43,426 bases of DNA from a virus: IMG/VR virus record IMGVR_UViG_3300029623_000016, positions 1 through 43,426 of that record, one strand, 5' to 3'. The notes beneath the pieces were generated by a model, which saw nothing but the letters and a program-made list of their open reading frames with translations, ran no database searches and was not told the origin of the DNA. Positions within the stretch are counted from its first letter, which is position 1, and every line of letters starts with the position of its first letter. Below are positions 4,156 to 40,603 of the stretch, one piece after another. Both the position numbers and the translations under genes were made by a program.

Positions 4156-4178
4156 ACGTTATAAATGATTTATAATGT
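4156..4178. promoter_or_regulatory. Copy 1 of the 23-bp perfect AT palindrome ACATTATAAAT(C/G)ATTTATAATGT, 14 nt upstream of the TerS-like start
   Basis: Read directly. Palindromic with 11-bp arms. Contains TATAAT/TATAAA on both strands. Confidence 0.6.
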
Positions 4179-4904
4179 CTTTGTCTTACGACAATAAAAA
4201 AGTTTTTTAAAAAGCTATTGCCGAGGGCGGCAGCCCTTCTTTTTACGTCCTGTATAATAATATAGGGCGTAGCCTTATGTCAAGTAATATTATTCTTGCT
4301 TAATAATAATACTTAATTTTAGTGGTAGGTCGAGAGAGGATATTCTATATAGAGACCCCCTCCCCCTCTGGATAGAGTACTTATAACAGCTTCGCCGTCT
4401 CTAAATTTATTTTTTATTATTTTTAGACTTTTTATCTCTATAAAATAATACACTTATCTGTCAAATACACTTATGCGTCAATAATATATATGGTGGCGGA
4501 TTAAATACACTTGCAACGGCGGGAAAGGCTAACGCCTTATTATCAATAATATATAAATAATACTTTAAAATATTATTTTAACTTATAAATAATACTGATA
4601 TCATAATATTTATGAACATAAGTAATAATCCCATTTATACACAATTTATATCATTTTTTATATTTATCTTGTCAATTTATAATATCATTATTATTTATGA
4701 GACAAAATAATATTCTAAATTACAAAATAATATTGATAATAATATATATCAGATAATCTCAAATTCTATTATTTTTATTAGCTTTCTCTCTATTTATAAT
4801 AATATTATTATTTTAATATCATAATATGATTATACGAATGTTTCAATATTATTTTATATTTTTTGCTTGACAAGGCGGGAAAAATCTATCTAAAAACGCT
4901 ATGA

Positions 4905-4972
4905 TAAATTATATCATTATTTATCATTATTTATTATTATTTATTATATTATATCATTATTTATATCATTTT
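4905..4972. repeat. Tandem AT-rich repeat array (units approximately ATCATTATTTAT)
   Basis: Seen directly: atcattatttatcattatttattattatttattatattatatcattatttatatcatt. Confidence 0.6.
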
Positions 4973-5425
4973 AATATAAAATATCCATCTTTTTGATGAT
5001 TTTGATGTTTTGCGGGTTTCATTTTCCGGTTTGCATATCCCTCTTGTTAAGTGCTTAAAATCCCAAATTTTTAAAAAAAATAATAAATAAAATATATTGG
5101 ATTTATTTGGATTTATATTGATTTCCAAAAAATCAAGCAAAAAATCGCGCTAAAACGGCAAAAAGCGACAAAAATCCTTCCAAGCCATCAAAATTTTGTA
5201 TTTTCCTAAAAAGCTCAATATCAGTTGCTTGCGCAATCAAAACATTCAAAGTTTCAATCCGCTTTCTTTTGAAGCTTTTGATTGCTCCGCAATTTGATAA
5301 ATATTATCCGATTATAATCCCCGCCCTCATCTCTTATCATCTCCTATCATAAGGGTTTTTTATCCCCTTAATAATCATCTACTTAAAAAAGTAAAAATTT
5401 TTTTTGAAAAATTGAAAAAAGGGGC

Positions 5426-5454
5426 TTGACAGCTCCGCCGATTTCATTCAATAT
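5426..5454 (+). promoter_or_regulatory. Sigma70-like early promoter: TTGACA-N17-CAATAT
   Basis: Exact -35 hexamer, 17-nt spacer and a 4/6 match to the -10 box, ~70 nt upstream of the first plus-strand gene (5529). Confidence 0.45.
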
Positions 5455-5528
5455 AGGCGCATAAAAATTTGAGGGCTTTCCGCCCCGAAGGTTCTTTGAA
5501 ATAAACCCTAAAAAAGAAAGGCAATAAA

Positions 5529-5921
5529 ATGAAAAGTAAAGTTGTAAACACAAACGCGAAAATCGCCGACGGCTCAACCGTTGCGATAAATTCAAACGTG
5601 CAAGTACCGGAAACGCTCGACGAATTGAAAGCACTTGCCGCCGACGCGCTTGGTACAAATGACTCCGCCGCGATTGAAAGCCACTTGGTAGATTTATTTG
5701 TAGCTTGGAACGTGGCACACACTTATCAGTCGCAAGTAAGGTCAAAGTTAAAAACGGCAAGCTCATCTTTAACATATGACCAGCTTTCCGACCTTGTAAG
5801 CGATATTCCGTTCAGGATTCCAAGACCGGCAAGCGCACCCCGCGGTGACAAGGTTGTACTGAAAAAATCGCAACTTACACCGCAACAAATAGAAAAGCTC
5901 AGAGAGCTTGGAATACTCTAA
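5529..5921 (+). CDS. Early hypothetical protein (130 aa) with a C-terminal ...QIEKLRELGIL module
   Basis: First ORF after the promoter. Its C-terminal ~20 aa are shared with the 6327..6788 product. Confidence 0.6.
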   Translation: MKSKVVNTNAKIADGSTVAINSNVQVPETLDELKALAADALGTNDSAAIESHLVDLFVAWNVAHTYQSQVRSKLKTASSSLTYDQLSDLVSDIPFRIPRPASAPRGDKVVLKKSQLTPQQIEKLRELGIL

Positions 5922-6017
5922 AATAATAGTGGTGAGTACTTAATAGGTACTCACCACTTTTTGTTCTCTTATGGTATAAAAATATCATTTTATTAACATT
6001 AAATATTATAATATATT

Positions 6018-6305
6018 ATGAACTATAAAAAACAATTATTTTTCAACTATCGTAAACAATGTAAGTTGGCATATGAAGCGAACTTACCAGCTGAACCGCT
6101 CCAACTTGGCGGGCAAGTCACAATAAGTTTTGTCTGGACGGAAAGTTCACAAACGAAAGAAACCTTTGAATGTATGGTAATAGTATACCATCATAAGCCA
6201 ATGGTACAACGCATAAGTAACAGTGACGTCTTCCCCACCGACGCACTTTACCGCCTTGCTTGTGAGGCGGAAAAATATATTCACTTCGTGGGGACTAACG
6301 TCTAA
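6018..6305 (+). CDS. Hypothetical protein (95 aa)
   Basis: ORF on the early arm. Confidence 0.45.
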   Translation: MNYKKQLFFNYRKQCKLAYEANLPAEPLQLGGQVTISFVWTESSQTKETFECMVIVYHHKPMVQRISNSDVFPTDALYRLACEAEKYIHFVGTNV

Positions 6306-6326
6306 TAGTAGATAGGATAAGTATTT

Positions 6327-6788
6327 GTGTTAGATTATAATATTATCGAAACAGGTCAAACTTTACAGATAGACGATACTATTAGGAAACTTCTATACAT
6401 AAAATATGGTGTATGGTGTGGAACTATGGTAGTTTTCGACAAGGGGACAATAGTCCCCTTAATAAAAGAAACTACAAGGATAGTTCAGTACTTCACGGAG
6501 GACAAAGTACTTAAAAATGAAAAGGTTGAAACTTATCGGGAGACTATCCCACCCAAACCACTGCTTTTAAGAGGGGAGTCATCAAGATTACCCCGCGCCA
6601 CTTTAACGTGGGAAGAAATAAGACTTGCATATACAAGTCAAAGTTCTAACGAAACATACAAAGTACAAAAAGCGAAAGTTCCTAAACCTTTCGGAAAGCC
6701 GAAAGGTGAAGTAGATAAAATAGAACTTAAAGTGACTACACTAAGTGATAAACAAATAGCAACTCTGAAAGAGTTGGGAATACTATAA
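6327..6788 (+). CDS. Early hypothetical protein (153 aa, GTG start) with a C-terminal ...QIATLKELGIL module
   Basis: ORF. C-terminal motif shared with the 5529..5921 product at protein and DNA level. Confidence 0.55.
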   Translation: MLDYNIIETGQTLQIDDTIRKLLYIKYGVWCGTMVVFDKGTIVPLIKETTRIVQYFTEDKVLKNEKVETYRETIPPKPLLLRGESSRLPRATLTWEEIRLAYTSQSSNETYKVQKAKVPKPFGKPKGEVDKIELKVTTLSDKQIATLKELGIL

Positions 6789-6821
6789 CTCGAAGATTTG
6801 TAAACATTCCAAAAGAATGAG

Positions 6822-6844
6822 ACATTATAAATCATTTATAATGT
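6822..6844. promoter_or_regulatory. Copy 2 of the 23-bp AT palindrome (intergenic, after the 6788 stop)
   Basis: acattataaatcatttataatgt read directly. Confidence 0.6.
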
Positions 6845-6971
6845 ATAACTATGGATAAATAAACGTCTAAAAAGAAGAGTAAGAAAGGATATAATATGAC
6901 TCTAATTGATTTGGTAGACAGATTCTTTGAATCTAAACCGACGACTATGTCGTCTCACGTAGTTATTAAAG

Positions 6972-7340
6972 TTGATAATAAAATACTATATCAACTTTAT
7001 AGAAGTACTCTTGTGGTATGGTATCGTGATAAGAACATTTTTGGAAGTTAGACCTCATACTAACTATTATGAGTTCAGTCCTACTACTCAAAGAGCGTTT
7101 CGTAGGTTTGGAATAGTATTTTCTAACTGTAAAGGTAAATTAACGCTTGAACAAATTAACTACAAGGGTGGGCGTTTTAGACAATTCGACATTCCTGTTG
7201 AACAAGGGTATGTAATACTTATAAAATATTATACTCACGATATAGCTGTATGGGTTGCACCTGAAAGGAGTGTTGACTCGTTTATCCGAGAGTTTCGCGC
7301 GGAAGAAATGAGTAACTTGCTGAGAAGTGACAGTGTATAA
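6972..7340 (+). CDS. Hypothetical protein (122 aa; TTG start uncertain)
   Basis: ORF. A 51-codon ORF at 6896-7051 precedes it. Start codon not resolved. Confidence 0.35.
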   Translation: MIIKYYINFIEVLLWYGIVIRTFLEVRPHTNYYEFSPTTQRAFRRFGIVFSNCKGKLTLEQINYKGGRFRQFDIPVEQGYVILIKYYTHDIAVWVAPERSVDSFIREFRAEEMSNLLRSDSV

Positions 7341-7350
7341 GGATAGAGAT

Positions 7351-7405
7351 TGCCCCGCCTTGCGGCGGCTGGAAGTCGGCGGGGTGAAGCTGAGTGAATT
7401 TTTAA
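7351..7405 (+). terminator. GC hairpin (CCCCGCC...GGCGGGG) followed by a T-run: rho-independent terminator candidate
   Basis: Inverted repeat 7353-7359 / 7378-7384, then aattttt. Confidence 0.45.
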
Positions 7406-7423
7406 CTACAAGGAAAGGTAAGT

Positions 7424-7903
7424 ATGAAAGAATTGAAACTAAAAATAGAAAAGTTCAATAAGGCGATAGCCTTTCAGACACTTAAAGTCACGGATTGTGT
7501 AGATTCGGAACACGTAAAGTTCTCCGCCAGTCCTATCATATTGGAAGATAAGATTGTGCTCAATAAGTACAAAGACAACTCCACCTTGGGAAGAGCCTAC
7601 TTTAACTCCAACGAACAAAGGGACTTTGTCTTTGACAAGCTTATCAAATGGGTGACGGACGAGCAGTTTTCCCGCCCTCCAACTAAGTTGGAGATAGGTG
7701 AGGAAGCATTGTTTAGCGATACGATTGGGGAAGGCGGTGTTAGGGGAACACTTGTATACATACTACCAGAAGAATTTGAAAGTAGGTATCTATCTGCTTC
7801 CGACTCCTATCCGTATTGGTGCTATTGGAAGTACGCTCGCCCCGCCAACAATACCCTAAAAGTAAATGGTAATATCTACCATTGGAGGGGTGACAATGAA
7901 TAA
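7424..7903 (+). CDS. Hypothetical protein (159 aa)
   Basis: ORF with a purine-rich RBS (aaggaaagg) upstream. Confidence 0.55.
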   Translation: MKELKLKIEKFNKAIAFQTLKVTDCVDSEHVKFSASPIILEDKIVLNKYKDNSTLGRAYFNSNEQRDFVFDKLIKWVTDEQFSRPPTKLEIGEEALFSDTIGEGGVRGTLVYILPEEFESRYLSASDSYPYWCYWKYARPANNTLKVNGNIYHWRGDNE

Positions 7904-8321
7904 CGCGGTTCATTACCTCTTAACAAATAAAGACTATCGATTCGGTAAACATAAAGTGGAGGCGGGAGAGTATCGTTCAACCTACACTTACGATGGTTTT
8001 GTAATGATAGAATTCTATCATACATTAAAAATACTAGTATTTCATAAACCTATAATCAAGAAAGAAGTCATAACTATTTTTGAGAAATGTGGACTTAAAA
8101 TAAAGTATGATAAGAACCACAAAGTATATGAGATACGTACAGTATTTGGATACGTCTTAGGCGGGAGTCATATTAAATATACTATGAGTGATTGGAGTAT
8201 CGACTTTGTTGCTGTTAAGATCCTGCTTACTAATACACTGTTCTTTCGAGGAAAAGATTTAGTTTATACTTTACTAAATGATAAACTCGGGACTGAAACA
8301 GACCGACAGCCCCGCCCGTAA
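7896..8321 (+). CDS. Hypothetical protein (start taken at MNNAVHYLL; ATGA overlap with the upstream stop)
   Basis: ORF. The terminator hairpin overlaps its last codons. Confidence 0.5.
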   Translation: MNNAVHYLLTNKDYRFGKHKVEAGEYRSTYTYDGFVMIEFYHTLKILVFHKPIIKKEVITIFEKCGLKIKYDKNHKVYEIRTVFGYVLGGSHIKYTMSDWSIDFVAVKILLTNTLFFRGKDLVYTLLNDKLGTETDRQPRP

Positions 8322-8431
8322 TCAGAGGCGGGACAGTCAGCTTCATAGCCACAACCACGCGGCTTCAAGCCGCAACCACTGTCGCCCGTCAGGGCGGGTC
8401 AAGCTTCGCTTTAATCAACTATATATTCGAT
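8310..8431 (+). repeat. Structured intergenic cassette A (~110 bp): CCCGCC/GGCGGG hairpin, GCGGC/GCCGC hairpin, CGCCC/GGGCG hairpin, then CTTTAATCAA followed by a start codon
   Basis: Aligns with cassette B at 10350-10519 (shared aatcag.gggcggg...agctt..tcatagccac...cgcccg.ca.gggcggg...ctttaatcaa). Confidence 0.55.
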
Positions 8432-9073
8432 ATGAATAACCATATAATTACAAGAGATAAACTAATAGACATTATTAAAAAGTGTGACTTATCTAAATAT
8501 GACTTAGAAAAGACTATGTCTGGTGTTTATACGAAAGATTATGAACATCGGATATTTGAAATTCATAATGGAATATATGTATTTAATCCCGACAAAGATG
8601 CTTATAATATTCCACTAGCCAAGGATATGTTTACATATCTAACTAAACGGAGACCTATTATTATAGATACTAATAAGCAAGTTTATATAGGTGAACCTAT
8701 AACCTTTGCTCTTAATGACGACTACGTCGCTAATAAACTAACCTTTCTAAGAGTATATAAATATCTTAATGGAGCTGACTATAATGATAGTGGTATTACA
8801 GTAGAGGGAAGGTCAGTTTTTGATAGGAGAAGTAATAATAGCGTGGAGAAATCAACACTTCTGGTTAGAAGAATGAGCTTGCCGCTTCATAAGATTTATT
8901 GCCCCACCTCACGGGCGGGGTTATCTTTCATTAGACTTCTAACGGGAAGAGAGTTCTCTTGTAAGTTAGGCGTTTGGCACATCGGAAACATCGCAGTTAA
9001 ATTCCCGCTCTATTATCACGCTAACATGGAAATGATATTTACGCAATTCAAAGACAATATAAATGATTTATAA
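8432..9073 (+). CDS. Hypothetical protein (213 aa)
   Basis: ORF. Confidence 0.55.
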   Translation: MNNHIITRDKLIDIIKKCDLSKYDLEKTMSGVYTKDYEHRIFEIHNGIYVFNPDKDAYNIPLAKDMFTYLTKRRPIIIDTNKQVYIGEPITFALNDDYVANKLTFLRVYKYLNGADYNDSGITVEGRSVFDRRSNNSVEKSTLLVRRMSLPLHKIYCPTSRAGLSFIRLLTGREFSCKLGVWHIGNIAVKFPLYYHANMEMIFTQFKDNINDL

Positions 9074-9076
9074 GGT

Positions 9077-9541
9077 ATGAATAAGATAATAACAAAGCAT
9101 CTATTATTTAATTATGGTAACTATCAATATCAACAATGGATTCAACACGTCGGGATTTCATCTGCATATACACTTGCAAAGCAGATAAATAGGAACGTTA
9201 GATTTCCCGTCCCCGTCCTCGCGGGACATATAAACTATAAAGCAGCACCTATATTTATGCATATGTTGGAGAATTTTAAATGCTACCATAAGTGGCTTGG
9301 AACTGTTGTTAAGATAAGCTTTATGCTTGACTCTTGTTATATGTATATAAAGTGGAGAGGGGTTCCCCCGCCCAACTTAGATGAGATTAGAATGAGTCCA
9401 TCATTTTATGAAGAATGTTTACGTGGTGTATTGTACACCCCAACCGTATTACTTCACGTAGCAATAACTGAAAAACCTAACATACCAAACTGTGGAAAGT
9501 TGGATTATGAATATTTTAAATCTAATAACTTCGGATACTAA
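9077..9541 (+). CDS. Hypothetical protein (154 aa)
   Basis: ORF. Confidence 0.5.
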   Translation: MNKIITKHLLFNYGNYQYQQWIQHVGISSAYTLAKQINRNVRFPVPVLAGHINYKAAPIFMHMLENFKCYHKWLGTVVKISFMLDSCYMYIKWRGVPPPNLDEIRMSPSFYEECLRGVLYTPTVLLHVAITEKPNIPNCGKLDYEYFKSNNFGY

Positions 9542-9830
9542 TAGGAAAGCTCGTAAGCTTTTAGGACACCCATTAACCAAGCGTGAGATATATCTATTCA
9601 TATACTTAGATGCTTGTCTTAAAGACCATATAGAATACTCTGAAAAGTTTATGACTTCATACGATAAAGACATAATTCTTTCACTTAACTATATGGGGTT
9701 ACTTCGAGCGATTGAAACCCCGCAGGGTGTTAGCCTTGCTGTTAAGCGAAGCTTGTATAATCTTATACAAGATGCAATCTTTGATTGTTTTATTAGTGAA
9801 ATAGAGGAGAGATACGATGAATCCAGATGA
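9492..9830 (+). CDS. Hypothetical protein (112 aa; start uncertain, overlaps the upstream gene)
   Basis: ORF. Confidence 0.35.
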   Translation: MESWIMNILNLITSDTNRKARKLLGHPLTKREIYLFIYLDACLKDHIEYSEKFMTSYDKDIILSLNYMGLLRAIETPQGVSLAVKRSLYNLIQDAIFDCFISEIEERYDESR

Positions 9831-10095
9831 TATACAATTCTTTGATGTAGGAAAACCAGTCGTTGTAAAGATAGGAGAAACAGAGGGCGGGGAAGTCCGC
9901 TTTTGCATAGCAAAAGTAGTAGATATTATATTTATTACTGACGACGACACTATTAAAGTACAACAGTACTCAGTAAAGTTTACTAACGAGTATGATAATG
10001 ATACTTGTTGGTATGACGCTTGTGACGTATTTAAAAATATAGATTCTTTAATGGAGTCTATTAAACAAAAGAAAAATAAAACGAAAGGAAAATAA
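9817..10095 (+). CDS. Hypothetical protein (92 aa)
   Basis: ORF. Confidence 0.45.
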   Translation: MNPDDIQFFDVGKPVVVKIGETEGGEVRFCIAKVVDIIFITDDDTIKVQQYSVKFTNEYDNDTCWYDACDVFKNIDSLMESIKQKKNKTKGK

Positions 10096-10097
10096 AC

Positions 10098-10349
10098 ATG
10101 AAAGAAAAAGATATAAGGTTTAACATAGGCGATATAGTATATGCTGTTAAGGGTGTGAATAGACACACCAATGACTATGCTATCCTTAAACAGAAAGTCG
10201 AGGCGGTAATGGTCGAAGTTAATAGCGATGGGTGGATAAATGAAGTATCTTACGTTCTAACAGATGACCTCGGACATCATAGGTCTACTAAGGTGAGCGG
10301 GGTATTCGCTACATTTGAAGAAGCTCTCGAATATGCTAAGAACGACTAA
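10098..10349 (+). CDS. Hypothetical protein (83 aa)
   Basis: ORF with RBS aaaggaaaa. Confidence 0.5.
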   Translation: MKEKDIRFNIGDIVYAVKGVNRHTNDYAILKQKVEAVMVEVNSDGWINEVSYVLTDDLGHHRSTKVSGVFATFEEALEYAKND

Positions 10350-10519
10350 GATTTAGTTCCCCCGCGCTCGGAATAGACTCGGGATTCGGCAACAATCAGT
10401 GGGCGGGGCAAGCTTTGATTCATAGCCACCCCGCCCGCTTTCACCAACCGACTCTAATCCGCCCGCAAGGGCGGGGAGTCTACCCTAACTTTAATCAATC
10501 AACCTCAATACGAAGTAAT
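10350..10519 (+). repeat. Structured intergenic cassette B: perfect 8-bp GGGCGGGG/CCCCGCCC hairpin, CCGCCC-GCAA-GGGCGG tetraloop hairpin, then CTAACTTTAATCAATCAA followed by a start codon
   Basis: Related to cassette A (8310-8431). Read directly. Confidence 0.55.
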
Positions 10520-10783
10520 ATGAATGAAGAAGAAAAGTTTGAAGCAAGAATGATAGACCTTGCAGAGTCGGGTGATAACCCCGAAACAGTTATATTCGGT
10601 ATGCTTAACGCAATACGAATGTATTTCGAGTCTACTGACATGGACGATATATATGAAATAATGTTGGATTATATTCGTGATTGGGCAGACCGAGACGGGT
10701 ATAATAAAACTACTATTAACGTAGGTAAGTTTGTAAAGAAAATAGACAGTGGAGAAGAGTTCGAGTATGAAGAGATTGATTAA
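10520..10783 (+). CDS. Hypothetical acidic protein (87 aa; start moved to MNEEEK after cassette B)
   Basis: The ORF track start lies inside the structured repeat. The ATG at 10520 follows the conserved CTTTAATCAA box. Confidence 0.45.
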   Translation: MNEEEKFEARMIDLAESGDNPETVIFGMLNAIRMYFESTDMDDIYEIMLDYIRDWADRDGYNKTTINVGKFVKKIDSGEEFEYEEID

Positions 10784-11459
10784 ACGAACCTATCGGTTTA
10801 ATCCAAATAGTAAAAAGATTACTCTTATGCGAGCACTTGCTTCGCTGTCCAGCCACGACTTTATTGAAGTAGCAGGAGATAGTAATCTTCGTTACCTAAG
10901 AAACATCGCGTCAAGATATAAGATTTATCTCACGGTAACTAATATTGGTTTTGAGTCTTACAGAGTCTCTCTTAAAACGGATAAGGCTCTTGACTTTGTG
11001 TCCATTGCAGGTAATAAAGTCAAGAGTGATTATTCAACTGTAAATAATAAGGGTCTATATAATTTAAAACAAGACCTCATTCAACTTGGCGAGGAAGAAT
11101 TAAGGGGTAGTATAGATTTGATAGGAACTCGTATATCAGATGAAGAGACTGAAAGTTATTCTACTCTCGAACGAAAGTGGGAAACTAAGACACCAACGTA
11201 TGGTAAGTCTGGATATATGATAGACGGTTATTCTTACTATGTAGGTCATAAAGATATTCCAAGCGACTGGGTTGTGTATCATAGTGAATTTAATTGTCTC
11301 TTTAAACCTAAGCATGTAAAGAATCCTGTATTGTTGTCTAATAAAACACCACGAAGTATAGGTGTACCCGATACAGTTAAATTCGTTGGTCATGTTCCAC
11401 ATGAAGAAGCAGAAAGAAGATTTCAATTTTTAAGTACTTATGGACAAGAGAAAAAATAG
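10767..11459 (+). CDS. Hypothetical protein (~231 aa)
   Basis: ORF. No confident motif (HNH and GIY-YIG considered and not supported). Confidence 0.5.
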   Translation: MKRLIKRTYRFNPNSKKITLMRALASLSSHDFIEVAGDSNLRYLRNIASRYKIYLTVTNIGFESYRVSLKTDKALDFVSIAGNKVKSDYSTVNNKGLYNLKQDLIQLGEEELRGSIDLIGTRISDEETESYSTLERKWETKTPTYGKSGYMIDGYSYYVGHKDIPSDWVVYHSEFNCLFKPKHVKNPVLLSNKTPRSIGVPDTVKFVGHVPHEEAERRFQFLSTYGQEKK

Positions 11460-11778
11460 AATTAAAGATAGTCAGCAAACTGAGTTTGATTTCTCGACAT
11501 TTTGTCAACCTGATTGTATAGAATTAAAAAATAAACACTGGGGATTTAAAAAAGATTTCTTTGAACGTCTTGTTTATTCCCTTGAAAAACTTGCAGTTCC
11601 TATTACATACATAGATGTTAATAACTGTATAGTTAGAGCACGAATAGATGTCGCAGACATCGAACCTCTTATTAGAACGTCACAAGAGCTATTTAAAATT
11701 ACATTAGTAAAGTCTTGTGATGGACTTGTATTGGAGGGCGGGGCAAGAGTTAATGAACCTATAATTATCACTTGGTGA
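11440..11778 (+). CDS. Hypothetical protein (112 aa)
   Basis: ORF. Confidence 0.45.
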   Translation: MDKRKNRIKDSQQTEFDFSTFCQPDCIELKNKHWGFKKDFFERLVYSLEKLAVPITYIDVNNCIVRARIDVADIEPLIRTSQELFKITLVKSCDGLVLEGGARVNEPIIITW

Positions 11779-12344: not shown

Positions 12345-12664
12345 GCAATGAGCAAGAGTTAAAAGACGTTCTGTTGGAAGTAAATAACTCTATTAAAGGT
12401 GATTTACCTAATTATATACATGAGTTATTGTTAAAAGAAAGTGGAAAAAGTTGGAGATTTAGAGTCTATAAACAAGCAGGTAGGCTTATAGTAGTAGGAA
12501 CTATACCTCTATGTGTTTTGAAAAAGCTTATTGCTAATCCAGCGTTTTCTTTTTTAAAAGACATTTACTTCAAAGCTCCACTTTATGTAAAAGGCAAGGT
12601 CTTGTCAGACCTTACGATAGAAGAATTAGAAGCGCAGCTTCAAAGTGCAAATATAAATTATTGA
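12341..12664 (+). CDS. Hypothetical protein (107 aa)
   Basis: ORF. Confidence 0.45.
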   Translation: MSNEQELKDVLLEVNNSIKGDLPNYIHELLLKESGKSWRFRVYKQAGRLIVVGTIPLCVLKKLIANPAFSFLKDIYFKAPLYVKGKVLSDLTIEELEAQLQSANINY

Positions 12665-12666
12665 TA

Positions 12667-13554
12667 ATGTCCATTATGAAAATATATGATACCATTAAAC
12701 GTCCTATGAAAGGATATAATTGCATAGGACAACTTAACAATGTCAGATTTCCAAAAGTAGCACAACCTAAGTACGATGGAATAAGAGTGTTGTTTATTAA
12801 CGGAGTTGCTTTAAGTGCAAGTCTTAAACCTGTTCGTAATAAGAATATACAACGGATAGCGGCTTCACATGACTATGATGGATATGATACTGAATATGTC
12901 GTACCTAATAGTCCGATAGGATTAAGAGCGTGCTCTCATGAAGTGAACTCTTTTGACGTTTCTCTTTCTGGTATCTTTCATATATTTGATATAATTGGAG
13001 GCGGGGATTACGCTAATAGATTTCTTAATGCACGTATTGAAGCTAATGGATTGTTTGATGTAGCTCCAAGTACTATTGTACAGAACGTGGAGGAGATTGA
13101 ACAATACTTGTCTGAACAATTAAAGGCTGGTTATGAAGGGGCTATGCTTAAAGACATGTTTAGTCTATATAAACAAGGACGTAGCTCTATAAAGTCACAA
13201 GAATGTTTGAAGCTTAAACCTTTTGTAGACGATGACGCTGTCGTAGTAGGATACGAAGTAGAGCAAGAGAATCAGAATGAGCCAACTATAAATGAGCTTG
13301 GACTCACTAAGCGAAGCTCTGCGAAGGCAGGGAAGGTCGATAAACCTCTTATAGGTACATTGATATGTAAGTCGAACTTGTTTCCGTCACCGTTTGGTGT
13401 ATCAGGTTTTACTATGGAACTTAAAGAACGTATGTTCCACGAACGTAATAAGCTTATGGGTAAAACTATTACATATAAACATCAACGATGCGAAGCATAT
13501 GAGAATGCCCCGCGTCACCCCGTGTTTGTACGTTTTATAGACCCGATTGTATGA
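12667..13554 (+). CDS. lig: ATP-dependent DNA ligase (~296 aa)
   Basis: Motif I KYDGIR (KxDGxR), motif IV YEGAMLK (EGxxxK), downstream LKLK. Small phage-type ligase. ATG at 12667 follows the upstream stop. Confidence 0.8.
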   Translation: MSIMKIYDTIKRPMKGYNCIGQLNNVRFPKVAQPKYDGIRVLFINGVALSASLKPVRNKNIQRIAASHDYDGYDTEYVVPNSPIGLRACSHEVNSFDVSLSGIFHIFDIIGGGDYANRFLNARIEANGLFDVAPSTIVQNVEEIEQYLSEQLKAGYEGAMLKDMFSLYKQGRSSIKSQECLKLKPFVDDDAVVVGYEVEQENQNEPTINELGLTKRSSAKAGKVDKPLIGTLICKSNLFPSPFGVSGFTMELKERMFHERNKLMGKTITYKHQRCEAYENAPRHPVFVRFIDPIV

Positions 13555-13854: not shown

Positions 13855-13856
13855 TT

Positions 13857-14066: not shown

Positions 14067-14083
14067 AATTTTTAAAAATAAGC

Positions 14084-16220: not shown

Positions 16221-16221
16221 T

Positions 16222-17595: not shown

Positions 17596-17618
17596 ACATT
17601 ATCAATGATTTATATTGT
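17596..17618. promoter_or_regulatory. Copy 3 of the AT palindrome (variant ACATTATCAATGATTTATATTGT)
   Basis: Read directly, 3 nt after the 17592 stop. Confidence 0.5.
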
Positions 17619-18125: not shown

Positions 18126-18176
18126 TTCCCCGCTCCACCTTTCTTTGCCTTTCTAGGTGGGCGGGGTTTTCTTTTA
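18126..18176 (+). terminator. Rho-independent terminator: CCCCGCTCCACC...GGTGGGCGGGG hairpin followed by TTTTCTTTT
   Basis: Read directly. Confidence 0.65.
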
Positions 18177-19574: not shown

Positions 19575-19605
19575 CGACCTATTAACTTTAATCCCGTGAT
19601 TATAT

Positions 19606-19628
19606 TTTTATCAATCATTTATATTGTA
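19606..19628. promoter_or_regulatory. Copy 4 of the AT palindrome (degenerate left arm), 6 nt upstream of the 19634 start
   Basis: ttatcaatcatttatattgt. Confidence 0.45.
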
Positions 19629-30695: not shown

Positions 30696-30718
30696 ACATT
30701 ATAAATGATTTATATTGT
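30696..30718. promoter_or_regulatory. Copy 5 of the AT palindrome, spanning the stop of the 236-aa gene and ending 12 nt before the start of the 698-aa gene
   Basis: acattataaatgatttatattgt. Confidence 0.6.
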
Positions 30719-33456: not shown

Positions 33457-34570
33457 CGTTAATCACCCTCGTTGTCCATATCTTATCTCGTATACTATAC
33501 TTGATACACCAGAAGTCTCCAGAGTCTTTTTTCTGGAATACCCAACTTACTGCATCTTGGTCTAATTCATAATGACCTATGATGTTATCTGTCTTAGTAG
33601 TCTCAGCTACTTGATTAAACCAATTCCAAATGGGGTCTCCGATGGGTACAAGAGTTAAACCATCAAGTGCATAAAAGTTATCTTTTCCAATGAAATATGA
33701 AATTTCATTTGCTGTTACTACACTGTAATGATAAATACAACCTGTGTTAGATGTGAGAACGGTAGTTCTGAACCTATTATCATGTCCCTCATAATCAGAC
33801 CTCCAGATAGAGTTTTTAGTAAACGTTATGACTACACCTTCCGTCCAGGCTAATCCGGTAACTTCATTTGCATTTGCACCAAGATTAAAAATATCAGCTT
33901 CTTTCGACCTTGTGACTTCAAAATCCTCTGGATTGTTTATATCACTCCACATGATAGTTCCAGGATTATCTTCTCCGTCTATAAGAAGATTTCCTAAAAA
34001 CAGTCTATCTTTGGTAACTAAAATATATTTTGCACTTATATAAACGGCAGTTTCTTTTTCACCTTTTAATATCTTATAGGTTGGAGTTACTAATTCTATC
34101 GAAAACGGTATACCTAACGTAGTAGAAGAACCAGGAATTATTTTATATAGAGGTAAACCTTTACGAGTCATATAAGCAGTGGATATTTCAGTCCATACCC
34201 ACTGCGCAAATTGCATAGTTCCATCATCGTAATTTTTATAAACAGTTCCATCTTCAAGAGTAAATTGACCTACTTCTAATAATGGAATAATTTGCTCATC
34301 AGGGTCTTTTCTATCACAATAATAAAATTTATCATCAATTTTTATACCAAAATATTCTATATTATCTTGAAGTGTTATAGTGACAGCATAACCATCTACC
34401 TGCCCAGTTCCGTTAAAAACAGCATATGGTACATATGATGGTTCAGACCTCATAGAGCCGTCTTCGACATAACCATTCTCAACTTCTTTAAAATACAAAG
34501 AAGTTGAAATGTCATTTATATCTTGACGTATACCAAAGTTAATCGGTATTACTATTTCATTCCTTGCCAT
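33443..34570 (-). CDS. Hypothetical tail protein (375 aa)
   Basis: ORF in the tail block. Confidence 0.4.
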   Translation of the reverse strand: MARNEIVIPINFGIRQDINDISTSLYFKEVENGYVEDGSMRSEPSYVPYAVFNGTGQVDGYAVTITLQDNIEYFGIKIDDKFYYCDRKDPDEQIIPLLEVGQFTLEDGTVYKNYDDGTMQFAQWVWTEISTAYMTRKGLPLYKIIPGSSTTLGIPFSIELVTPTYKILKGEKETAVYISAKYILVTKDRLFLGNLLIDGEDNPGTIMWSDINNPEDFEVTRSKEADIFNLGANANEVTGLAWTEGVVITFTKNSIWRSDYEGHDNRFRTTVLTSNTGCIYHYSVVTANEISYFIGKDNFYALDGLTLVPIGDPIWNWFNQVAETTKTDNIIGHYELDQDAVSWVFQKKDSGDFWCIKYSIRDKIWTTRVINDEHI

Positions 34571-36062
34571 CGTCTAACCTTTTCCAGAAATTCATTCCTA
34601 ATATAGGTAAAACACTTTCGTAATTTTTACCTACCTCTATATCAGTTACTCTATATGTTTCGTTGTTAAAAGGCATATTTAAATTTATAGTCATTTCTAA
34701 ATCAACTAACCACCATAAAGTATCCTCTTCTAATTCGATTTCTTGAGGGTCTACTACGGAGAATACGATATATCCATATGCTCTATCAGTGTATGTGTTT
34801 TTAATATTATTAAAGTAAACACCATTTCTTACAGCTTCTTCGATAGTTGTTTCACCTATAATAATACCATCAGGATTCCATACAGGGTCTTTCGACAAAG
34901 TTATTTTAACTTTATAATTTTTGTATTTCGAGAGGTATAAATTTCCCGACAATGCTAAATTAGGAAAAATATACAAATACTTTTGGGAAAATAGAGACCA
35001 AGCATTTTTTAAAGAAAATGACACATCGGTTATATTAGCTAAATATCCTACCGGAGTATAGAAATAAATTTTTTGAAGTTTTGCTACATCATTAGCTTCT
35101 TTATTTACTCGAAGCATGTTGCGATAAGTTCTATTAGAATGTTTTTCTACTATTTGTTCCAAAGTACAATTAGCGTATTGTGTTGCCTTTAAAGTCCAAT
35201 TTAATTCATAATTAGGTGTCCATCTAGAATTATTACCTATCGCAGTAATGTTAATAAACGCGTTATTCCTTAATGAAAATCCTTGTATATTACTTGTGCG
35301 TTCTCCAAATGACACTATAAAATACTTTGCTCCTTGTAAATCATTCTTAGTAAAAGTTCTCTTATACGACTGCGTTTTACCTAAATGAAATAATCCAAAT
35401 GAATGGTATCTGCTATCAGATGAATTTTTAGACGCTAACCAAAAATTAACAGTTAAATCTGGGCAAGAAAGAATACCCCATGACGTTGCACCGCCGTTAT
35501 TTAATGATAAGTCTAGATTAGTTACGTCAGTTATAGATAAAGGTATAATAACATATAATCTACTCCTTATATAACTATTTGACGATAACTGTATAGTTTC
35601 ACCATCTATTATCTTAGTAGTCAATACTCCGTCATTATCTTCATAGTCTCCCCACTTAATCCAATTTAAGGTATAATCCGTTATAGGAATACCAACAAAA
35701 TCATCAGAAGTTCCATATGCAAATGTATTGAAATTAGCGTTGCCAGTAGCACATATAGCTTGACTATTTAATTTAATCCAACGACCAGAAAATTTGCTAC
35801 TATTATTCGGGTCTATATCAGACCTCAAAGCTATCACTTGATTATTTCTACTATATACTTGACTGTCTTTAAAATTATTTAATATTGCATTATCGTCTGA
35901 TATAAATATATCAGCTAATGTTTGAAGTAAACCATCATCGTTTTTTAAAAATCTTTTTATCTGTCTAAGAGCACGAGCGTCAACATTAAAACCATCTGCA
36001 TCTTCAGGTGTGCTTGCCCGTAAATTTCTTAAACTACTTCCACTGTAAGTGTCATTACTCAT
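34557..36062 (-). CDS. Tail fibre/tailspike-like protein B (501 aa). N-terminal ~120 aa homologous to the neighbouring 335-aa protein
   Basis: Shared N-terminus (YSG...PED...RQ[VI]KRFL...), divergent Asn/Ser/Thr-rich C-terminus. Confidence 0.5.
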   Translation of the reverse strand: MSNDTYSGSSLRNLRASTPEDADGFNVDARALRQIKRFLKNDDGLLQTLADIFISDDNAILNNFKDSQVYSRNNQVIALRSDIDPNNSSKFSGRWIKLNSQAICATGNANFNTFAYGTSDDFVGIPITDYTLNWIKWGDYEDNDGVLTTKIIDGETIQLSSNSYIRSRLYVIIPLSITDVTNLDLSLNNGGATSWGILSCPDLTVNFWLASKNSSDSRYHSFGLFHLGKTQSYKRTFTKNDLQGAKYFIVSFGERTSNIQGFSLRNNAFINITAIGNNSRWTPNYELNWTLKATQYANCTLEQIVEKHSNRTYRNMLRVNKEANDVAKLQKIYFYTPVGYLANITDVSFSLKNAWSLFSQKYLYIFPNLALSGNLYLSKYKNYKVKITLSKDPVWNPDGIIIGETTIEEAVRNGVYFNNIKNTYTDRAYGYIVFSVVDPQEIELEEDTLWWLVDLEMTINLNMPFNNETYRVTDIEVGKNYESVLPILGMNFWKRLDDGKE

Positions 36063-37069
36063 TATACGTCCTCGATAGCAGGTGATTCATCACTAGTTTT
36101 GACCCAAATATTAACTCCGATAAAAGGTACAGATTCTTGGTAAGAAGCATCTGCTACTACTTCATAAGATGAAGTAAAATTAGCCACCATAGATGCACTC
36201 ATTGCAGAAGCTATTACATTACTCCCAGCTCCATATTTATTAGTTATCCATTCGTCTGGATTATCACAATTATAAGTAGCAATAAGCCAACCGTCAGTGT
36301 CGGAAAATTTTATTTCACTACTACCCGTATACGATGACTGTATTCCTAAGGTATTATTTTTGGGTGCAAAAGTTCCTTTATAAAGTTCCGTCCCAATGTT
36401 AACTCCATAAGTATTATTATTGGAAAAAGAGATTCTTATTGGAAGAGAAGTTAATCTATCATAGGCAACATTTAATTCATCTAAATTTATAGTATATATA
36501 AGAGTAGCATTAGTTAAGTTATTACGAGGAATTTTAAGCGCAGAATAACACCTTCTATAATGAAACCATGTACCATCGTCATTTGATACATAATGAAACC
36601 ATCTGTAATATGGTGTATTATTATCTAGTCCTGTCTCTAATCTTTTACTAGTAGTGCCTCCCCATTCTGCGTCAAAAGCAGAGCCATCTACCGATATGTT
36701 CGTTTTATTAGGAGTAAAAGCTACTATACTTCCAGTACTAACTAAAAGCTTACCAGAAATTTTCTCCCACGTTCCATTAAAATAAAGTTGATTTTCTTCA
36801 TCATTTGGATTAAACTCATTATCCATAGTAAAGTAAAGTTCACCTATTTCTGGAACTCTAATAAGTTTATTAAGTGCATCTAATATAGGATTAGAAGTTT
36901 CAGATGTTATCCATTCCGTTATCTTAGCTTCAAGCCCCTCTGGTCGTGTCAAAAACCTCTTAACTTGACGCATAGCTGCCGCATGGTATCCAGCAAGTTC
37001 AGTATCTTCTGGGTACTGCGGATTTATATCATTAAAAGTATTTCCAGAATAGTCAGGCATATTAACCAA
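36062..37069 (-). CDS. Tail fibre/tailspike-like protein A (335 aa). Paralog sharing an N-terminal anchor domain with the 501-aa protein
   Basis: N-terminal alignment of DYSGNTFNDINPQYPEDTELAGYHAAAMRQVKRFL with TYSGSSLRNLRASTPEDADGFNVDARALRQIKRFL. Confidence 0.5.
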   Translation of the reverse strand: MVNMPDYSGNTFNDINPQYPEDTELAGYHAAAMRQVKRFLTRPEGLEAKITEWITSETSNPILDALNKLIRVPEIGELYFTMDNEFNPNDEENQLYFNGTWEKISGKLLVSTGSIVAFTPNKTNISVDGSAFDAEWGGTTSKRLETGLDNNTPYYRWFHYVSNDDGTWFHYRRCYSALKIPRNNLTNATLIYTINLDELNVAYDRLTSLPIRISFSNNNTYGVNIGTELYKGTFAPKNNTLGIQSSYTGSSEIKFSDTDGWLIATYNCDNPDEWITNKYGAGSNVIASAMSASMVANFTSSYEVVADASYQESVPFIGVNIWVKTSDESPAIEDV

Positions 37070-37688
37070 AAATTTGAATTATTCCTACTTGTTTAAATCC
37101 AGAGTTCCAAGTCTCTACATCAAGAAAAGCACTATCTCGTGACTGTTTATTAGCGGCAATGATATTTTCATCTTCTTGTAAGAACATATACATTCTATCA
37201 AGCGTATCATAATAGACATAATCGTGTATTGCAGGCAAAAATTCATTTGCGTACTTATCATTAACTTCTCGGCTCTTAGTAATATTAAGATACCCTTGGA
37301 TACTTAATTCCTCATTAAATCTAGGTGGAAGTATAATAATATTTCCACGCTTCGCCAAAGTATAAGCAGGCAAGCATTGAGGAGATTTAAGATAAACGTC
37401 CGCAACCATAGACGTAAATGGCATAAGTCTCCATTGCTGTCCACCTTTACCAAGTACAAGTTCAATACGTTTAAATGTGTTATTTAAATCTAGGTCGCTC
37501 GTCTTGTCAGACGAGTCATTGATTGCATTGACGTTAATAACGTCGTTGAAAATTTCAAAATCTATCTTTATAAGAAGTCTATTTATAGACTCGCTTACAA
37601 AATTAGAAACAGGTTCTTTCCAATAATCGTCATCTTCTGGACGATTAACGGTTCTCAAAACTTCTAAGGTTATATCTTCTTCTGTCAT
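37062..37688 (-). CDS. Putative head-tail adaptor or tail tubular protein (208 aa)
   Basis: Position after the capsid genes, size similar to podoviral adaptor/gp11-like proteins. Positional only. Confidence 0.3.
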   Translation of the reverse strand: MTEEDITLEVLRTVNRPEDDDYWKEPVSNFVSESINRLLIKIDFEIFNDVINVNAINDSSDKTSDLDLNNTFKRIELVLGKGGQQWRLMPFTSMVADVYLKSPQCLPAYTLAKRGNIIILPPRFNEELSIQGYLNITKSREVNDKYANEFLPAIHDYVYYDTLDRMYMFLQEDENIIAANKQSRDSAFLDVETWNSGFKQVGIIQIFG

Positions 37689-37755
37689 AATATGACCTTT
37701 CTATAATAACGACAAGGGCTACACCCAACGAGAAGTGTAGCCCTTGCGTCATTCT

Positions 37756-37968: not shown

Positions 37969-37996
37969 AGTATTTTCCTTTTTTGATTGTTTACTT

Positions 37997-39412
37997 CTAG
38001 TCAACTTCAAGCTCGGGATTGAACACAGACATATTCTTAATGAACATGTGGTTCATCGGCTTCCAGAACTCCAACGTACCTTCGGAAAGCCATTCATCTT
38101 TCCTGCCGTCGAAGTCATTCGACTGTATGTTAGTTCTGACCTGCGTATCCCTGTCCCTCAACGGTCTCCAATTTATCGACCATATGTCTACTATGAGAGC
38201 AGACTTACGGTAAATCGGATTTTCATTGAAGAGCGGGTGCGTCACAAATATGAGAGTGCCGAAAGCGGTGATAAGCTTGTTAAATTCAAGCCCAAACGCT
38301 TTCTGACCAACTTCCCAGTGATACGAACCCTGAGCACGCATTGCCTTAGACATCGCACGCATAACGTCAGAACCGCAGAGAACGAGACGTTCAGCAGTCT
38401 TGGCGTTGTAGTACAGATTGATGTTAGACAACCACTTTTCAAGCAAGTCGATATTGAACTCACCAGACGCGTTTTCTATAATACGTTTTTCAGGGTCGTC
38501 ATCAGTCGTGGACGGTTGCTTGAAGCTATAAGGATTCCATACCTGACCGTTAACCATAATACCGTTAGAGCCAGCGTCCCAAGCTTCAAGAAATTCGAGG
38601 ATACCCGACATCGTACGAGTTTCCGTCACAGAACCATCAGCGTTCGTTATCGTCCTGTTAGAACGTTTCGAGAACAACAGCGATTTTTCAAGCTTGACAT
38701 AGTGGTCTCTCGCAGCGTCCATAGCACGCTTCTTATACGGACCAGACTGGTCGAACTCCAAATCCTGCTTTATCGCCGAACCAGTGAAGATGAACGGTTC
38801 TTTGAATATCTGAGTCTGATTCTGCAAGAAAGTCGGAATACGAGTACCACGAGGAGTACCGCTATGTCCACCTTCCTCGAAAGCAGAACCGATAACGTCT
38901 ATCGACGTACCAGCCGCATAGTCAGTCAAATTACCCGAAGCAACAGCAAAGTCACGTATCGGAAGTACTTCAACATAACCGTTAACAGTGTTGTCCGCAA
39001 CACCAGGAGTGACAGCCGTTATACGAGCAAGTGCATTCCAAGTATGGAAACGAACAACATCTCCAACAGTCAAAAGACCAACCGAAGTAGCTTTAATATA
39101 AAGCTTGTCAGCGGTGGTATACGTTTTAGCCGTAATCACAGTACCATCATTAGCATCACCAGTGGTGGGAGCATTAGTGGTAATAGGATTCGTGCCGCGA
39201 GTAGTTATGCTCGGAGAACGGTATATCTCCTCTATCCACTCGTGTTTAGTGTTCGCAATGGGGTCAACATTCGCCCAAGCAATAAGAGCCGTAAGCGGAG
39301 CACCACCATTAGGAAACGCGTTTATAATCGTGCGACGAAGAGACCTATGAATGAGGTCTTTATCGCGAAACTGCTCCACCGAAGGGAAGCCAAGTATTAC
39401 GTTTTCTGCCAT
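37997..39412 (-). CDS. Major capsid protein (471 aa)
   Basis: Order portal, scaffold, then this gene. Size is right. Elevated GC content typical of a highly expressed or conserved gene. Fold not verifiable by eye. Confidence 0.6.
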   Translation of the reverse strand: MAENVILGFPSVEQFRDKDLIHRSLRRTIINAFPNGGAPLTALIAWANVDPIANTKHEWIEEIYRSPSITTRGTNPITTNAPTTGDANDGTVITAKTYTTADKLYIKATSVGLLTVGDVVRFHTWNALARITAVTPGVADNTVNGYVEVLPIRDFAVASGNLTDYAAGTSIDVIGSAFEEGGHSGTPRGTRIPTFLQNQTQIFKEPFIFTGSAIKQDLEFDQSGPYKKRAMDAARDHYVKLEKSLLFSKRSNRTITNADGSVTETRTMSGILEFLEAWDAGSNGIMVNGQVWNPYSFKQPSTTDDDPEKRIIENASGEFNIDLLEKWLSNINLYYNAKTAERLVLCGSDVMRAMSKAMRAQGSYHWEVGQKAFGLEFNKLITAFGTLIFVTHPLFNENPIYRKSALIVDIWSINWRPLRDRDTQVRTNIQSNDFDGRKDEWLSEGTLEFWKPMNHMFIKNMSVFNPELEVD

Positions 39413-39427
39413 TTTGTGTTTTCCTTA

Positions 39428-40375
39428 TTAGTAGCCAAAGATGCTAAATCCAGCACTTACATTATCTTTGACTGTTTCATTAGGTTTATTTATTACTCCA
39501 CCCGATGAGAATGTGCGCGTTGTCGCTTTTGGAACTGACGTTGTTGCATTCTGTTGTACAGGATTTGCAACAGCACCTCCATTATCGAGTTTGACTTTTG
39601 GGTCAAAGTTAGGAATAGACTGTTTAATTACTTTTGATATTTCATTAACCAGTGTTTCTTTAAATTGTTTTTCCGGAACTTGTAGCAGTTTAGGATTCTG
39701 CTGAGCTATACTAGCGGTCATTACATTAACTACTGACTTGTAAGGAATAAGTCCAGGGTAGTCTTCATAGAACTTAGTTTCCGCTTCATGTGCTGCTTTC
39801 TGCGAAACTTGTGAAAGAACAGGCTGAATATTCTGTGCAAAGAAATTATCAATCCTACCTGCATATTTATTAAGTTCCGCGTTAGCAATAGTCGTTGCCA
39901 TGTTCCTACCATACATTGCTGTACGAATAAGAAGGTCGGTCAACATTGCCGCACGCTCTTCTTCCGGAGTTTCAGACGAAAATATTTTACGAGTCTCTTC
40001 CGGAGTTATAGAAATTTTACCAAGAATACGGTTTGCTTCTTCTATGGTAAGTTCAGGCTTCTTTTCCTGCTGTGCTTTATTCTGTTCAGCATTAACAGCT
40101 GCAACAGCAGACGCAACCGTTTTAGCAAGCTCTATTTGGTCTATACCTTTATTGCCATCGTTAGCGGATTGACCGACTGGTGGCTGACCGCCTTCGGCGG
40201 ACGGTGGCTGGTCGGTTGAAGTTTGGGGTTCCTGTTGCTGTGAAGCGTCAGTCTGCCCCGCCTGCTCATTGCCCGAGCCGGACGGTTCTTGGTTGACCGC
40301 GGGGTTATTACGTTCCAAAGCCATCTGTATCATATCTACATCTGGCTGTTCACCTATGTTGTTTTCATCTGCCAT
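39428..40375 (-). CDS. Scaffolding protein (315 aa)
   Basis: Between portal and capsid. Q/E/P-rich disordered N-terminus followed by helical regions, as scaffolds typically have. Confidence 0.5.
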   Translation of the reverse strand: MADENNIGEQPDVDMIQMALERNNPAVNQEPSGSGNEQAGQTDASQQQEPQTSTDQPPSAEGGQPPVGQSANDGNKGIDQIELAKTVASAVAAVNAEQNKAQQEKKPELTIEEANRILGKISITPEETRKIFSSETPEEERAAMLTDLLIRTAMYGRNMATTIANAELNKYAGRIDNFFAQNIQPVLSQVSQKAAHEAETKFYEDYPGLIPYKSVVNVMTASIAQQNPKLLQVPEKQFKETLVNEISKVIKQSIPNFDPKVKLDNGGAVANPVQQNATTSVPKATTRTFSSGGVINKPNETVKDNVSAGFSIFGY

Positions 40376-40377
40376 AT

Positions 40378-40581
40378 TTATTCCTGTCTGGTTATTGATT
40401 TTATGTAGTTGTGGAAATCCTCTGGAAGTTCGACTAGCGTCCTGTAAACTTCACCAAGCCGTTCTAGCCTTTTCCTGTCTTCGTCATTTTTAGGCGGGGT
40501 TCCAAGAATATCATAAACAAGCTGTTCAGCCTTCTTATCTATGAAGTTCTTGAATAAGGTCTCATAATCTTGTATTGTCAT
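40378..40581 (-). CDS. Hypothetical small protein (67 aa)
   Basis: ORF. Its start codon directly abuts the AT palindrome. Confidence 0.4.
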   Translation of the reverse strand: MTIQDYETLFKNFIDKKAEQLVYDILGTPPKNDEDRKRLERLGEVYRTLVELPEDFHNYIKSITRQE

Positions 40582-40603
40582 ACATTATAAATCATTTATA
40601 TTT
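40582..40603. promoter_or_regulatory. Copy 6 of the AT palindrome. It contains the portal stop codon (40596-40598) and abuts the next start codon (40581)
   Basis: acattataaatcatttatatttg. Confidence 0.6.

Follow-up and report, generated by a model that had tools for sequence, protein, structure and literature searches.

Dyad-symmetric elements at gene junctions of an uncultured podophage, possible start signals for its transcription units

Genome Organization and the Junction Element

The virus record IMGVR_UViG_3300029623_000016 of IMG/VR is a stretch of 43,426 bp, here called the window, that resembles the complete, circularly permuted genome of an uncultured podophage. Eight copies of a 23-bp AT-rich, dyad-symmetric element, ACAWTATMAAT-N-ATTKATAWTGT, are found in it at the junctions between genes, and the function of this element is the subject of this report. 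Nearly the same phage is represented by six IMG/VR contigs of 38.5-44.9 kb, all from a single metagenome. A near-identity search of 25 kb against cultured phages found nothing close, and in a search for cultured relatives aimed at the host, also made via genome contigs, the best matches reached only 22-37% capsid identity.

The late genes start at 4141 and are read leftward, past the window ends, as far as 24062. They comprise putative terS, terL, an SU10-type portal gene, a 67-aa open reading frame (ORF), a scaffold-sized gene, an SU10/DUF5309 capsid gene, tail genes and the genes of a 698-aa and a 1507-aa protein. The early and replication genes are read rightward (5529-24065) and include those for a ligase, a PD-(D/E)XK exonuclease, a MazG-like protein, Sak4, an SSB-like protein, a ParB-N/methylase fusion, a family A DNA polymerase and a primase. 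The SSB-like gene (g17659-18102) has a weak DUF669 match and adjoins Sak4. The two blocks are separated by a 1.35-kb AT-rich stretch free of genes (4179-5528), and the non-coding share of the window is 6.7%. Families were sought in PHROGs and/or Pfam for all early ORFs and most of the others, about 50 in total; some structural ORFs in 31441-37688 were not included. The matches contain no integrase or repressor family, a tRNA scan of the window found nothing, and the predicted gene set is of the lytic podophage type.

A pattern search that allowed up to 3 mismatches found the copies starting at 4156, 6822, 9054, 17596, 30696 and 40582, while 100 shuffles yielded none (0.00). The copies at 19605 and 12648 were added by relaxed and half-site scans (Table 1). 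An earlier, sequence-only reading had described six copies of a perfect 23-bp palindrome or close variants of it, always intergenic. The junction copies are real and non-random, but they total eight, those at 9054 and 12648 being additions to the earlier list, and the one placed at 19606, a weak variant, begins at 19605. Only copy 6822 is a perfect palindrome (11+1+11); the other seven carry 1-5 mismatches. Five copies are wholly or almost wholly non-coding, whereas in those at 9054, 12648 and 40582 the non-coding bases number 3, 6 and 14, respectively, and the rest belongs to the last codons and the stop of the gene upstream. The finer details of that reading stand: copy 40582 takes in the portal TAA (40598-40596) and is adjoined by the next ATG (40581), the 236-aa gene has a single base of its stop codon within copy 30696, and the distances from copies 30696 and 4156 to the next starts are those given in Table 1.

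Each copy occupies a minimal gap between co-directional genes or stands ahead of the first late gene, and the upstream stop codon is frequently within the motif or touching it. The motif centre lies 8-66 nt from the next ATG overall, and the chance that eight random positions would all fall 0-66 nt upstream of a start is about 4e-9. The two distances listed for copy 12648 depend on which ATG starts the ligase gene, while ATG 9077 is a real start by codon-level conservation. The constant part of the element is a 15-bp core, TATMAAT-N-ATTKATA. An alignment of 30 sites from the phage and its relatives reads ACAATATAAAT-N-ATTTATAATGT; positions A6, A9, A10, T15, A17, T18 and A19 do not vary, the centre is unconstrained, and positions 8 and 16 are M and K. 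Isolated TATMAAT half-sites (44 in number) are spread over coding DNA and the control region, and none precedes a start. A related palindrome with another centre (TTATCAAGCGTTGATAA) is present at 25593-25615 within the 1507-aa gene and is the only motif-like dyad in coding DNA.

Table 1. Copies of the junction element and features associated with them.
Feature	Position	Strand	Centre to ATG (nt)	Context
Copy 1	4156..4178	-	26	ACATTATAAATCATTTATAACGT in gene orientation; 14 nt before putative terS start (4141); heads leftward late operon
Copy 2	6822..6844	+	63	Perfect palindrome; between g6327-6788 and 51-aa ORF at 6896
Copy 3	9054..9076	+	12	ACAATATAAATGATTTATAAGGT; holds stop of g8432-9073; ATG 9077 immediately after
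Copy 4	12648..12670	+	8 (or 17)	CAAATATAAATTATTGATAATGT; holds stop of g12341-12664; overlaps DNA ligase start region
Copy 5	17596..17618	+	52	3 nt past Sak4-like gene; 41 nt before SSB-like g17659-18102
Copy 6	19605..19627	+	18	TTTTTATCAATCATTTATATTGT; weak, 5 mismatches, degenerate left end; 6 nt before g19634, first gene of the block g19634, DNA polymerase, primase
Copy 7	30696..30718	-	24	Between 236-aa gene and 698-aa/1507-aa genes; 12 nt before 698-aa start
Copy 8	40582..40604	-	12	Holds portal stop; abuts ATG of 67-aa ORF that precedes scaffold and major capsid genes
Sigma-70-like promoter	4254..4283	-		TTGACA-18-TATTAT; best minus-strand match, toward terS; consensus match only
Small GC hairpin with T-run	4219..4232	-		Between sigma-70-like promoter and copy 1
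Terminator-like hairpin	18128..18176	+		GC-rich with U-run; closes the unit from copy 5 to SSB-like gene
Strong hairpin	37705..37753	-		-31 kcal/mol, U-rich tail; closes the unit from copy 8 through 67-aa ORF, scaffold and capsid

Conservation in Related Phages

Orthologous copies are present in 14 strain-level loci wherever the locus covers them. Identity among these loci is 98.4% in the 15-bp core, 93.6% in the outer 8 bp and 79-89% in the 40-nt flanks. The core persists where a flank has been swapped for unrelated sequence: copy 4156 is kept in strains in which both of its flanks are replaced, and the core of copy 19605 is kept in strains with a replaced left flank. Copy 12648 is identical in 8 strains, and in locus L207 the orthologue of copy 6822 abuts the ATG of another gene.

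More distant relatives keep the element at the same junctions. Locus L007 (78% capsid identity) has TATCAAT-N-ATTGATA after terL, after the portal gene and before a 674-aa gene, and L008 (58% capsid identity) has TATTAAT-C-ATTAATA at the same three junctions. The counterparts of the 30696 junction are at 18080 in L007 and 16699 in L008, and those of the 40582 junction at 8826 and 8828. Loci of the early region were obtained via exonuclease homologues. Copies are found before the ligase gene and after Sak4 in L210 (51% exonuclease identity), while L211 (44%) has eight, including those after the ligase gene, after Sak4 and before the primase gene. Same-junction copies are traced down to about 52-58% capsid and 44% exonuclease identity. 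Only decayed relics are found in L212 (39%), for example ACGGTATCTGTTTTTGATATTGT, at 11730-11760 and 17613-17648, where the neighboring genes are kept. This decay suggests that the protein that reads the element was lost or changed in that lineage.

The half-site differs between lineages, being TATAAAT/TATCAAT in the window group, TATCAAT in L007 and TATTAAT in L008, with one variant throughout the copies of a lineage. Such concerted variation points to a co-evolving phage factor. Farther phages with an SU10-type capsid have dyad elements of their own, in 2-4 copies just upstream of start codons, typically before the portal gene or terL and after the capsid gene. These read TGTAAAT-A-ATTTACA, TTTCAAT-W-ATTGAAA, ATCA-N5-TGAT, GTTCAA-ACA-TTGAAC and GGTTCTT-AAA-AAGAACC. 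The exact consensus has 0 matches in IMG/VR, and a degenerate 20-mer scan returned mostly single chance matches. The repeats of Caulobacter phage Kuura were considered as a parallel and rejected, as they are terminal repeats and not junction motifs.

The 213-aa gene at 8432-9073 has a 32%-identical allele in L209 (7066-7698), a locus of the same phage species, and extra or different small genes lie between motif copies in L207 (8425-8919) and L209 (7727-8206). By this comparison of loci the early region is mosaic and cassette-like.

Duplex DNA or RNA Structure

Among the three modes of action that the sequence-only reading had offered were a site for a dimeric DNA-binding regulator and an AU-rich RNA hairpin by the ribosome-binding site or start codon. 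Such a hairpin could serve translational coupling or control, RNase III processing or mRNA stabilization. The copies are transcribed inside operons, abut start codons and have stop or start codons within or beside them, all of which would suit an RNA element. Appreciable hairpins are formed by the copies at 4156 (-5.4 kcal/mol) and 6822 (-6.5 kcal/mol) and by these two only. The minimum free energies of the eight copies are 0, 0, -1.3, -1.4, -2.3, -2.5, -5.4 and -6.5 kcal/mol; copy 30696 gives -2.5, four of the eight do no better than shuffles, those at 9054, 17596 and 40582 among them, and those at 12648 and 19605 have no RNA fold.

The alignment of 30 sites is equally unfavorable to pairing. 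Paired cells make up 76.7% of it against 74.8% after shuffling of partners, a level that 63 of 500 shuffles reach. Since pairing is at the level of the shuffles, it is a by-product of two similar half-sites. Pair 8/16 is unpaired in 9 of the 30 sites (30%) and occurs as A/T, C/G, A/G and C/T, all four within L211 and three within the window. The innermost symmetric positions, T11 and A13, cannot pair in a hairpin, weak copies are conserved despite their inability to fold, and no Rfam family matches. This evidence argues against both hairpin and cruciform; the RNA-hairpin reading is largely refuted, and we give it hardly any weight.

It is probable that the element is read as duplex DNA, in a sequence-specific manner, by a factor with two-fold symmetry, because there is no pairing constraint, positions 8 and 16 occur in the combinations given above, isolated half-sites lie off the junctions and variants are shared within lineages. 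The dimeric-regulator proposal is therefore supported as a mode of recognition: the dyad consists of two degenerate half-sites and does not reflect base pairing.

Possible Start Signals for Transcription Units

We tentatively favor the view that the copies are a phage-specific start signal for transcription units. Two inverted ACAWTATMAAT half-sites would form a duplex-DNA recognition site for a two-fold-symmetric, most likely dimeric, phage-encoded protein. The copies would break up the two long convergent operons, each lying at the 5' end of a unit under phage control. Each would be a phage-specific middle or late promoter, or the core of one, at which transcription would begin inside or just past the right arm. 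The leader of the downstream gene would be either short, with its own Shine-Dalgarno sequence (centre-to-ATG 17-66 nt), or very short (8-15 nt).

Three arrangements, those of copies 5, 8 and 1, suggest that a copy stands at the start of a unit. Downstream of copy 5 come an A-rich leader that includes a Shine-Dalgarno sequence, the SSB-like gene and the hairpin at 18128-18176, and in L210 and L211 stable hairpins likewise follow the same SSB-like gene while the copy is kept upstream. Behind the unit that copy 8 heads, hairpins of -25 kcal/mol (L007) and -29 kcal/mol (L008), different in sequence, stand at the place equivalent to 37705-37753. The units of copies 5 and 8 end in terminators, and relatives keep this layout. 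On the minus strand in front of the late genes the order is promoter (4283-4254), hairpin (4232-4219), copy 4156 and terS. In the distant locus L194 the element TGTAAAT-A-ATTTACA comes right after a 10-bp GC hairpin terminator and before the next gene. A site that raises the capsid block and the SSB-like gene would make sense, whereas a block ahead of them would not.

Several observations weigh against promoters. The PHROGs and Pfam matches of the ORFs scanned include no family of sigma factors, RNA polymerases or other DNA-binding proteins. Promoters are not usually dyad-symmetric, and such symmetry implies that antisense transcripts start as well. The best-conserved part is the dyad centre and not the TAATGT end, and the outer ends are not consistently better kept on the gene-proximal side, being inconsistent between copies. 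An ATG follows the motif directly (centre +12) at 9054, 40582, L207 8402 and L209 8207, and other ATGs stand at centre +8, +10 and +13. Because these ATGs abut the motif, a start 6-8 nt beyond the element, as in phage phiEco32, would fall inside the ORF; the distances are at the same time too variable for strictly leaderless starts. The element does contain TATAAT, which the sequence-only reading had taken for a possible bidirectional -10. By inspection there is no -35 or TG at the proper distance from TATAAT or TATAAAT, and the start codons are too near for sigma-70 geometry using the TATAAT of the right arm. Geometries of the MerR-like, activator-at--35 and leaderless kinds were rejected, as the start codons come within 8-26 nt of the dyad centre and the spacing varies.

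A more specific model can be drawn for the family as a whole. Uncultured podophages with SU10-type capsids may use dyad-symmetric promoters that are read by an unrecognized phage factor, which would be a dimeric recruiter of host RNA polymerase or a cryptic sigma-like protein that reads both strands. Many of their mRNAs would carry leaders of 0-7 nt, and the half-site would be retuned in each lineage together with its factor, as the series TATAAAT, TATCAAT, TATTAAT, TGTAAAT and TTTCAAT might reflect. We regard this model as unlikely.

Alternative Explanations

The main rival, which we consider somewhat unlikely, is a dimeric phage repressor that acts as a roadblock. It would halt host RNA polymerase at the junctions in the manner of stoperators, or occlude the ribosome-binding region through transcription, and so divide the operons into timed segments. 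Dyad symmetry suits a dimeric repressor, the minimal co-directional gaps leave no space for a separate promoter, and the distance to the ATG is unconstrained, as this model allows. A strong sigma-70-like promoter aimed at the late genes stands about 70-90 nt upstream of copy 1. Precedents are the L5 stoperators and a repressor of the lytic phage D29, which lowers the genes downstream of its site (PMC4351075, PMC12266134). Yet a block before the scaffold/capsid genes and the SSB-like gene would lower the products needed most, these units have terminators of their own, and a terminator immediately precedes the L194 element, so that a block there would add nothing. The PHROGs and Pfam scans also found neither lysogeny functions nor a repressor.

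A site for a host protein, an architectural or global regulator (IHF/HU-like or Fur-family-like) that organizes or times the genome, is quite unlikely. Fur-family boxes have a 7-1-7 form with AAT-N-ATT, and the core has the same form; its arms differ from Fur, PerR and Zur boxes at 4-6 of 15 positions. By inspection, the mixed C/T copies at 17596, 19605 and 12648 (other strand) fit the IHF consensus WATCAANNNNTTR exactly, but five of the eight copies lack the C central to IHF sites or differ at TT. No phage reader was detected, and the decay of the motif in L212 might follow a host shift, both in keeping with a host protein. Against this, close relatives use TATAAAT, TATCAAT or TATTAAT in concert.

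The copies might finally be recombination linkers or selfish palindromes, offering short homology for cassette exchange or spreading themselves, with no regulatory role; copies do border replaced segments (the left flank of 19605, both flanks of 4156) and have different neighbors at L207 8402 and L209 8207, but only 2 of 49 distinct clusters of similarity break-points fall at copies (p 0.17, no enrichment) and the junctions are fixed across deep divergence, which fits selection for a local function, so that this explanation is very improbable.

Search for the Reader

The sequence-only reading had named the RHH-like protein and the ParB-like domain as candidate regulators. The RHH-like protein (g14790-15047, 85 aa) is conserved in all lineages at 21-29% identity. 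Its match to RHH_5 is weak (E 0.055), and its predicted beta-alpha-alpha fold is of low confidence (pLDDT 52). The gene is kept also in the lineage with the decayed motif, which speaks against it as the regulator, and nothing ties the ParB-like domain to the motif. The operon of g14790 stands, with a conserved 185-aa protein (g14178-14735), behind the strongest plus-strand sigma-70-like promoter of the window, TTGACA-17-AATAAT at 14084-14112, and TTGACA is kept at the same place in L211 (about 8770) and L212 (about 8790). No link of the RHH-like or the 185-aa protein to the motif was found. Single-sequence AlphaFold models of g14178 and g14790 reached pLDDT values of about 51-52, too low for a fold search, and profiles of two conserved early proteins found nothing in the PDB.

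The 213-aa protein beside copy 9054 is excluded as the reader, since its 32%-identical allele coexists with an unchanged motif; it has 3 representatives in 1.8 billion proteins. The phiEco32 sigma factor gp36 was compared by phmmer with all six-frame ORFs of the window, with a best E value of 0.71, and hhalign against gp36 was negative. The gp36 sequence itself matches phrog_1740 at 2e-45, and no scanned ORF of the window does.

Other Features of the Window

Within the gene-free stretch, about nine 10-bp-phased AT-rich units, CATTATTTAT-like, lie at 4895-4984, and many inverted repeats accompany them in the divergent control region. This segment looks like an origin or a bent-DNA region. The first rightward gene (5529-5921), which encodes a 130-aa protein of no known family, is isolated; a promoter-like site containing TTGACA precedes it and a perfect bidirectional terminator with a 14-bp stem (5928-5958) closes it. 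It probably encodes a very highly expressed early protein. The ATG of g6018 comes 5 nt after a TATAAT hexamer (6006-6020), the interval has no Shine-Dalgarno sequence, and g6018 may have a short-leader or leaderless start from a host-type promoter.

The 1507-aa protein (24062-28585, minus strand) is the last late protein, in a position that equals that of the 1473-aa gp26 of phiEco32. It has no match in Pfam, PHROGs or PDB sequences, and the 698-aa protein has none in PDB sequences. A 68-aa gene of the GerE/LuxR helix-turn-helix type lies 3' of the DNA polymerase gene in L211 (16571-16777) and L212 (16528-16734); the window is without it.

Implications

Dispersed conserved elements at gene junctions are the means by which many phages run their own transcription programme. 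The element described here is distinctive in that it is symmetric, sits nearly atop start codons and holds fixed junctions across diverse uncultured phages without a recognizable sigma factor, RNA polymerase or repressor. Should the copies be promoters, the transcription map of the phage follows from them, and they point to a factor that redirects host RNA polymerase and that might find practical use with its site as a compact orthogonal promoter-factor pair. Should they be roadblocks, control of the stoperator type extends to a lytic podophage. Either way, the motif is a handle for finding the regulator.

Comparison with Known Phage Control Systems

The T7 arrangement phi10, gene 10, Tphi consists of a 23-bp promoter, a highly expressed unit and a terminator. 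The window resembles it in having a 23-bp junction element at the head of a terminator-closed unit. The half-site TATAAAT matches the T4 late promoter TATAAATA at 7 of 8 bases. The window elements differ from both systems in being symmetric, and no homologue of a phage RNA polymerase, gp55 or gp33 was detected. In T4 a single element suffices, together with gp55 and gp33; isolated half-sites of the window are not at junctions and none stands before a start.

In layout the window resembles phiEco32 and SU10, with which it shares gene order and the SU10-type capsid and portal. The late promoters of these phages consist of a single element, tAATGTAtA, recognized by the phage sigma factor gp36 (PMC8948821, PMC4281155, PMC12276001). 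In phiEco32 they stand ahead of the first late gene, behind the capsid region and ahead of the giant final gene (PMC8948821, PMC4281155). The window is alike in using a single short conserved element without a -35, in few copies at junctions. Copy 4156 precedes terS and copy 30696 the 698-aa/1507-aa genes, just as TAATGTA precedes genes 6 and 26 in phiEco32, and TAACGTC-N13-ATG before terS has the spacing of TAATGTA-N13-ATG before gene 6. Copies 6822, 30696 and 40582 end in TAATGTATA, TAATGTAAA and TAATGTATG, of the form TAATGTA(T/A)(A/G), and match tAATGTAtA at 9/9, 8/9 and 8/9 positions. The other five copies match at 5-7 of 9, and L007 and L008 read TAAAGT/TAAGGT at this position. The window element differs in being a 15-23-bp dyad whose centre is best conserved, and no homologue of gp36 (phrog_1740) is present among the scanned ORFs. 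On geometry alone, a start 6-8 bp past the element would lie inside the ORF at 9054, 12648, 19605 and 40582.

Repeated elements are also known from mycobacteriophages. Start-associated sequences (SAS) are asymmetric, include the ribosome-binding site and lie at a fixed short distance from the start, whereas the centre-to-ATG distance of the window motif ranges over 8-66 nt. In Cluster K phages they stand immediately upstream of the start codons of a subset of genes (PMC3203893, via PMC4351075). The stoperators of Cluster A, bound by the immunity repressor of temperate phages (L5 gp71), are described as asymmetric and oriented with transcription (PMC4351075). They resemble the window copies in their many sites, very short co-directional gaps, presence in both genome arms and contact with stop and start codons. 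The window site differs in that it is dyad-symmetric, with neither end consistently better kept, and in that no lysogeny genes were detected in the phage. Cluster O phages, which form no lysogens, carry 17-bp palindromic repeats, TGTTCGGNNNCCGAACA, whose function is unknown (PMC4351075). Both repeats are dispersed and dyad-symmetric, but that of Cluster O is GC-rich and unrelated in sequence, numbers over 30 copies, of which about a third fall within genes, and is not tied to starts, in contrast to the window copies, all of which are at junctions. The element thus belongs to none of the T7, phiEco32 gp36, T4 late and L5 stoperator families and is a new variant within the known class of dispersed phage control sites.

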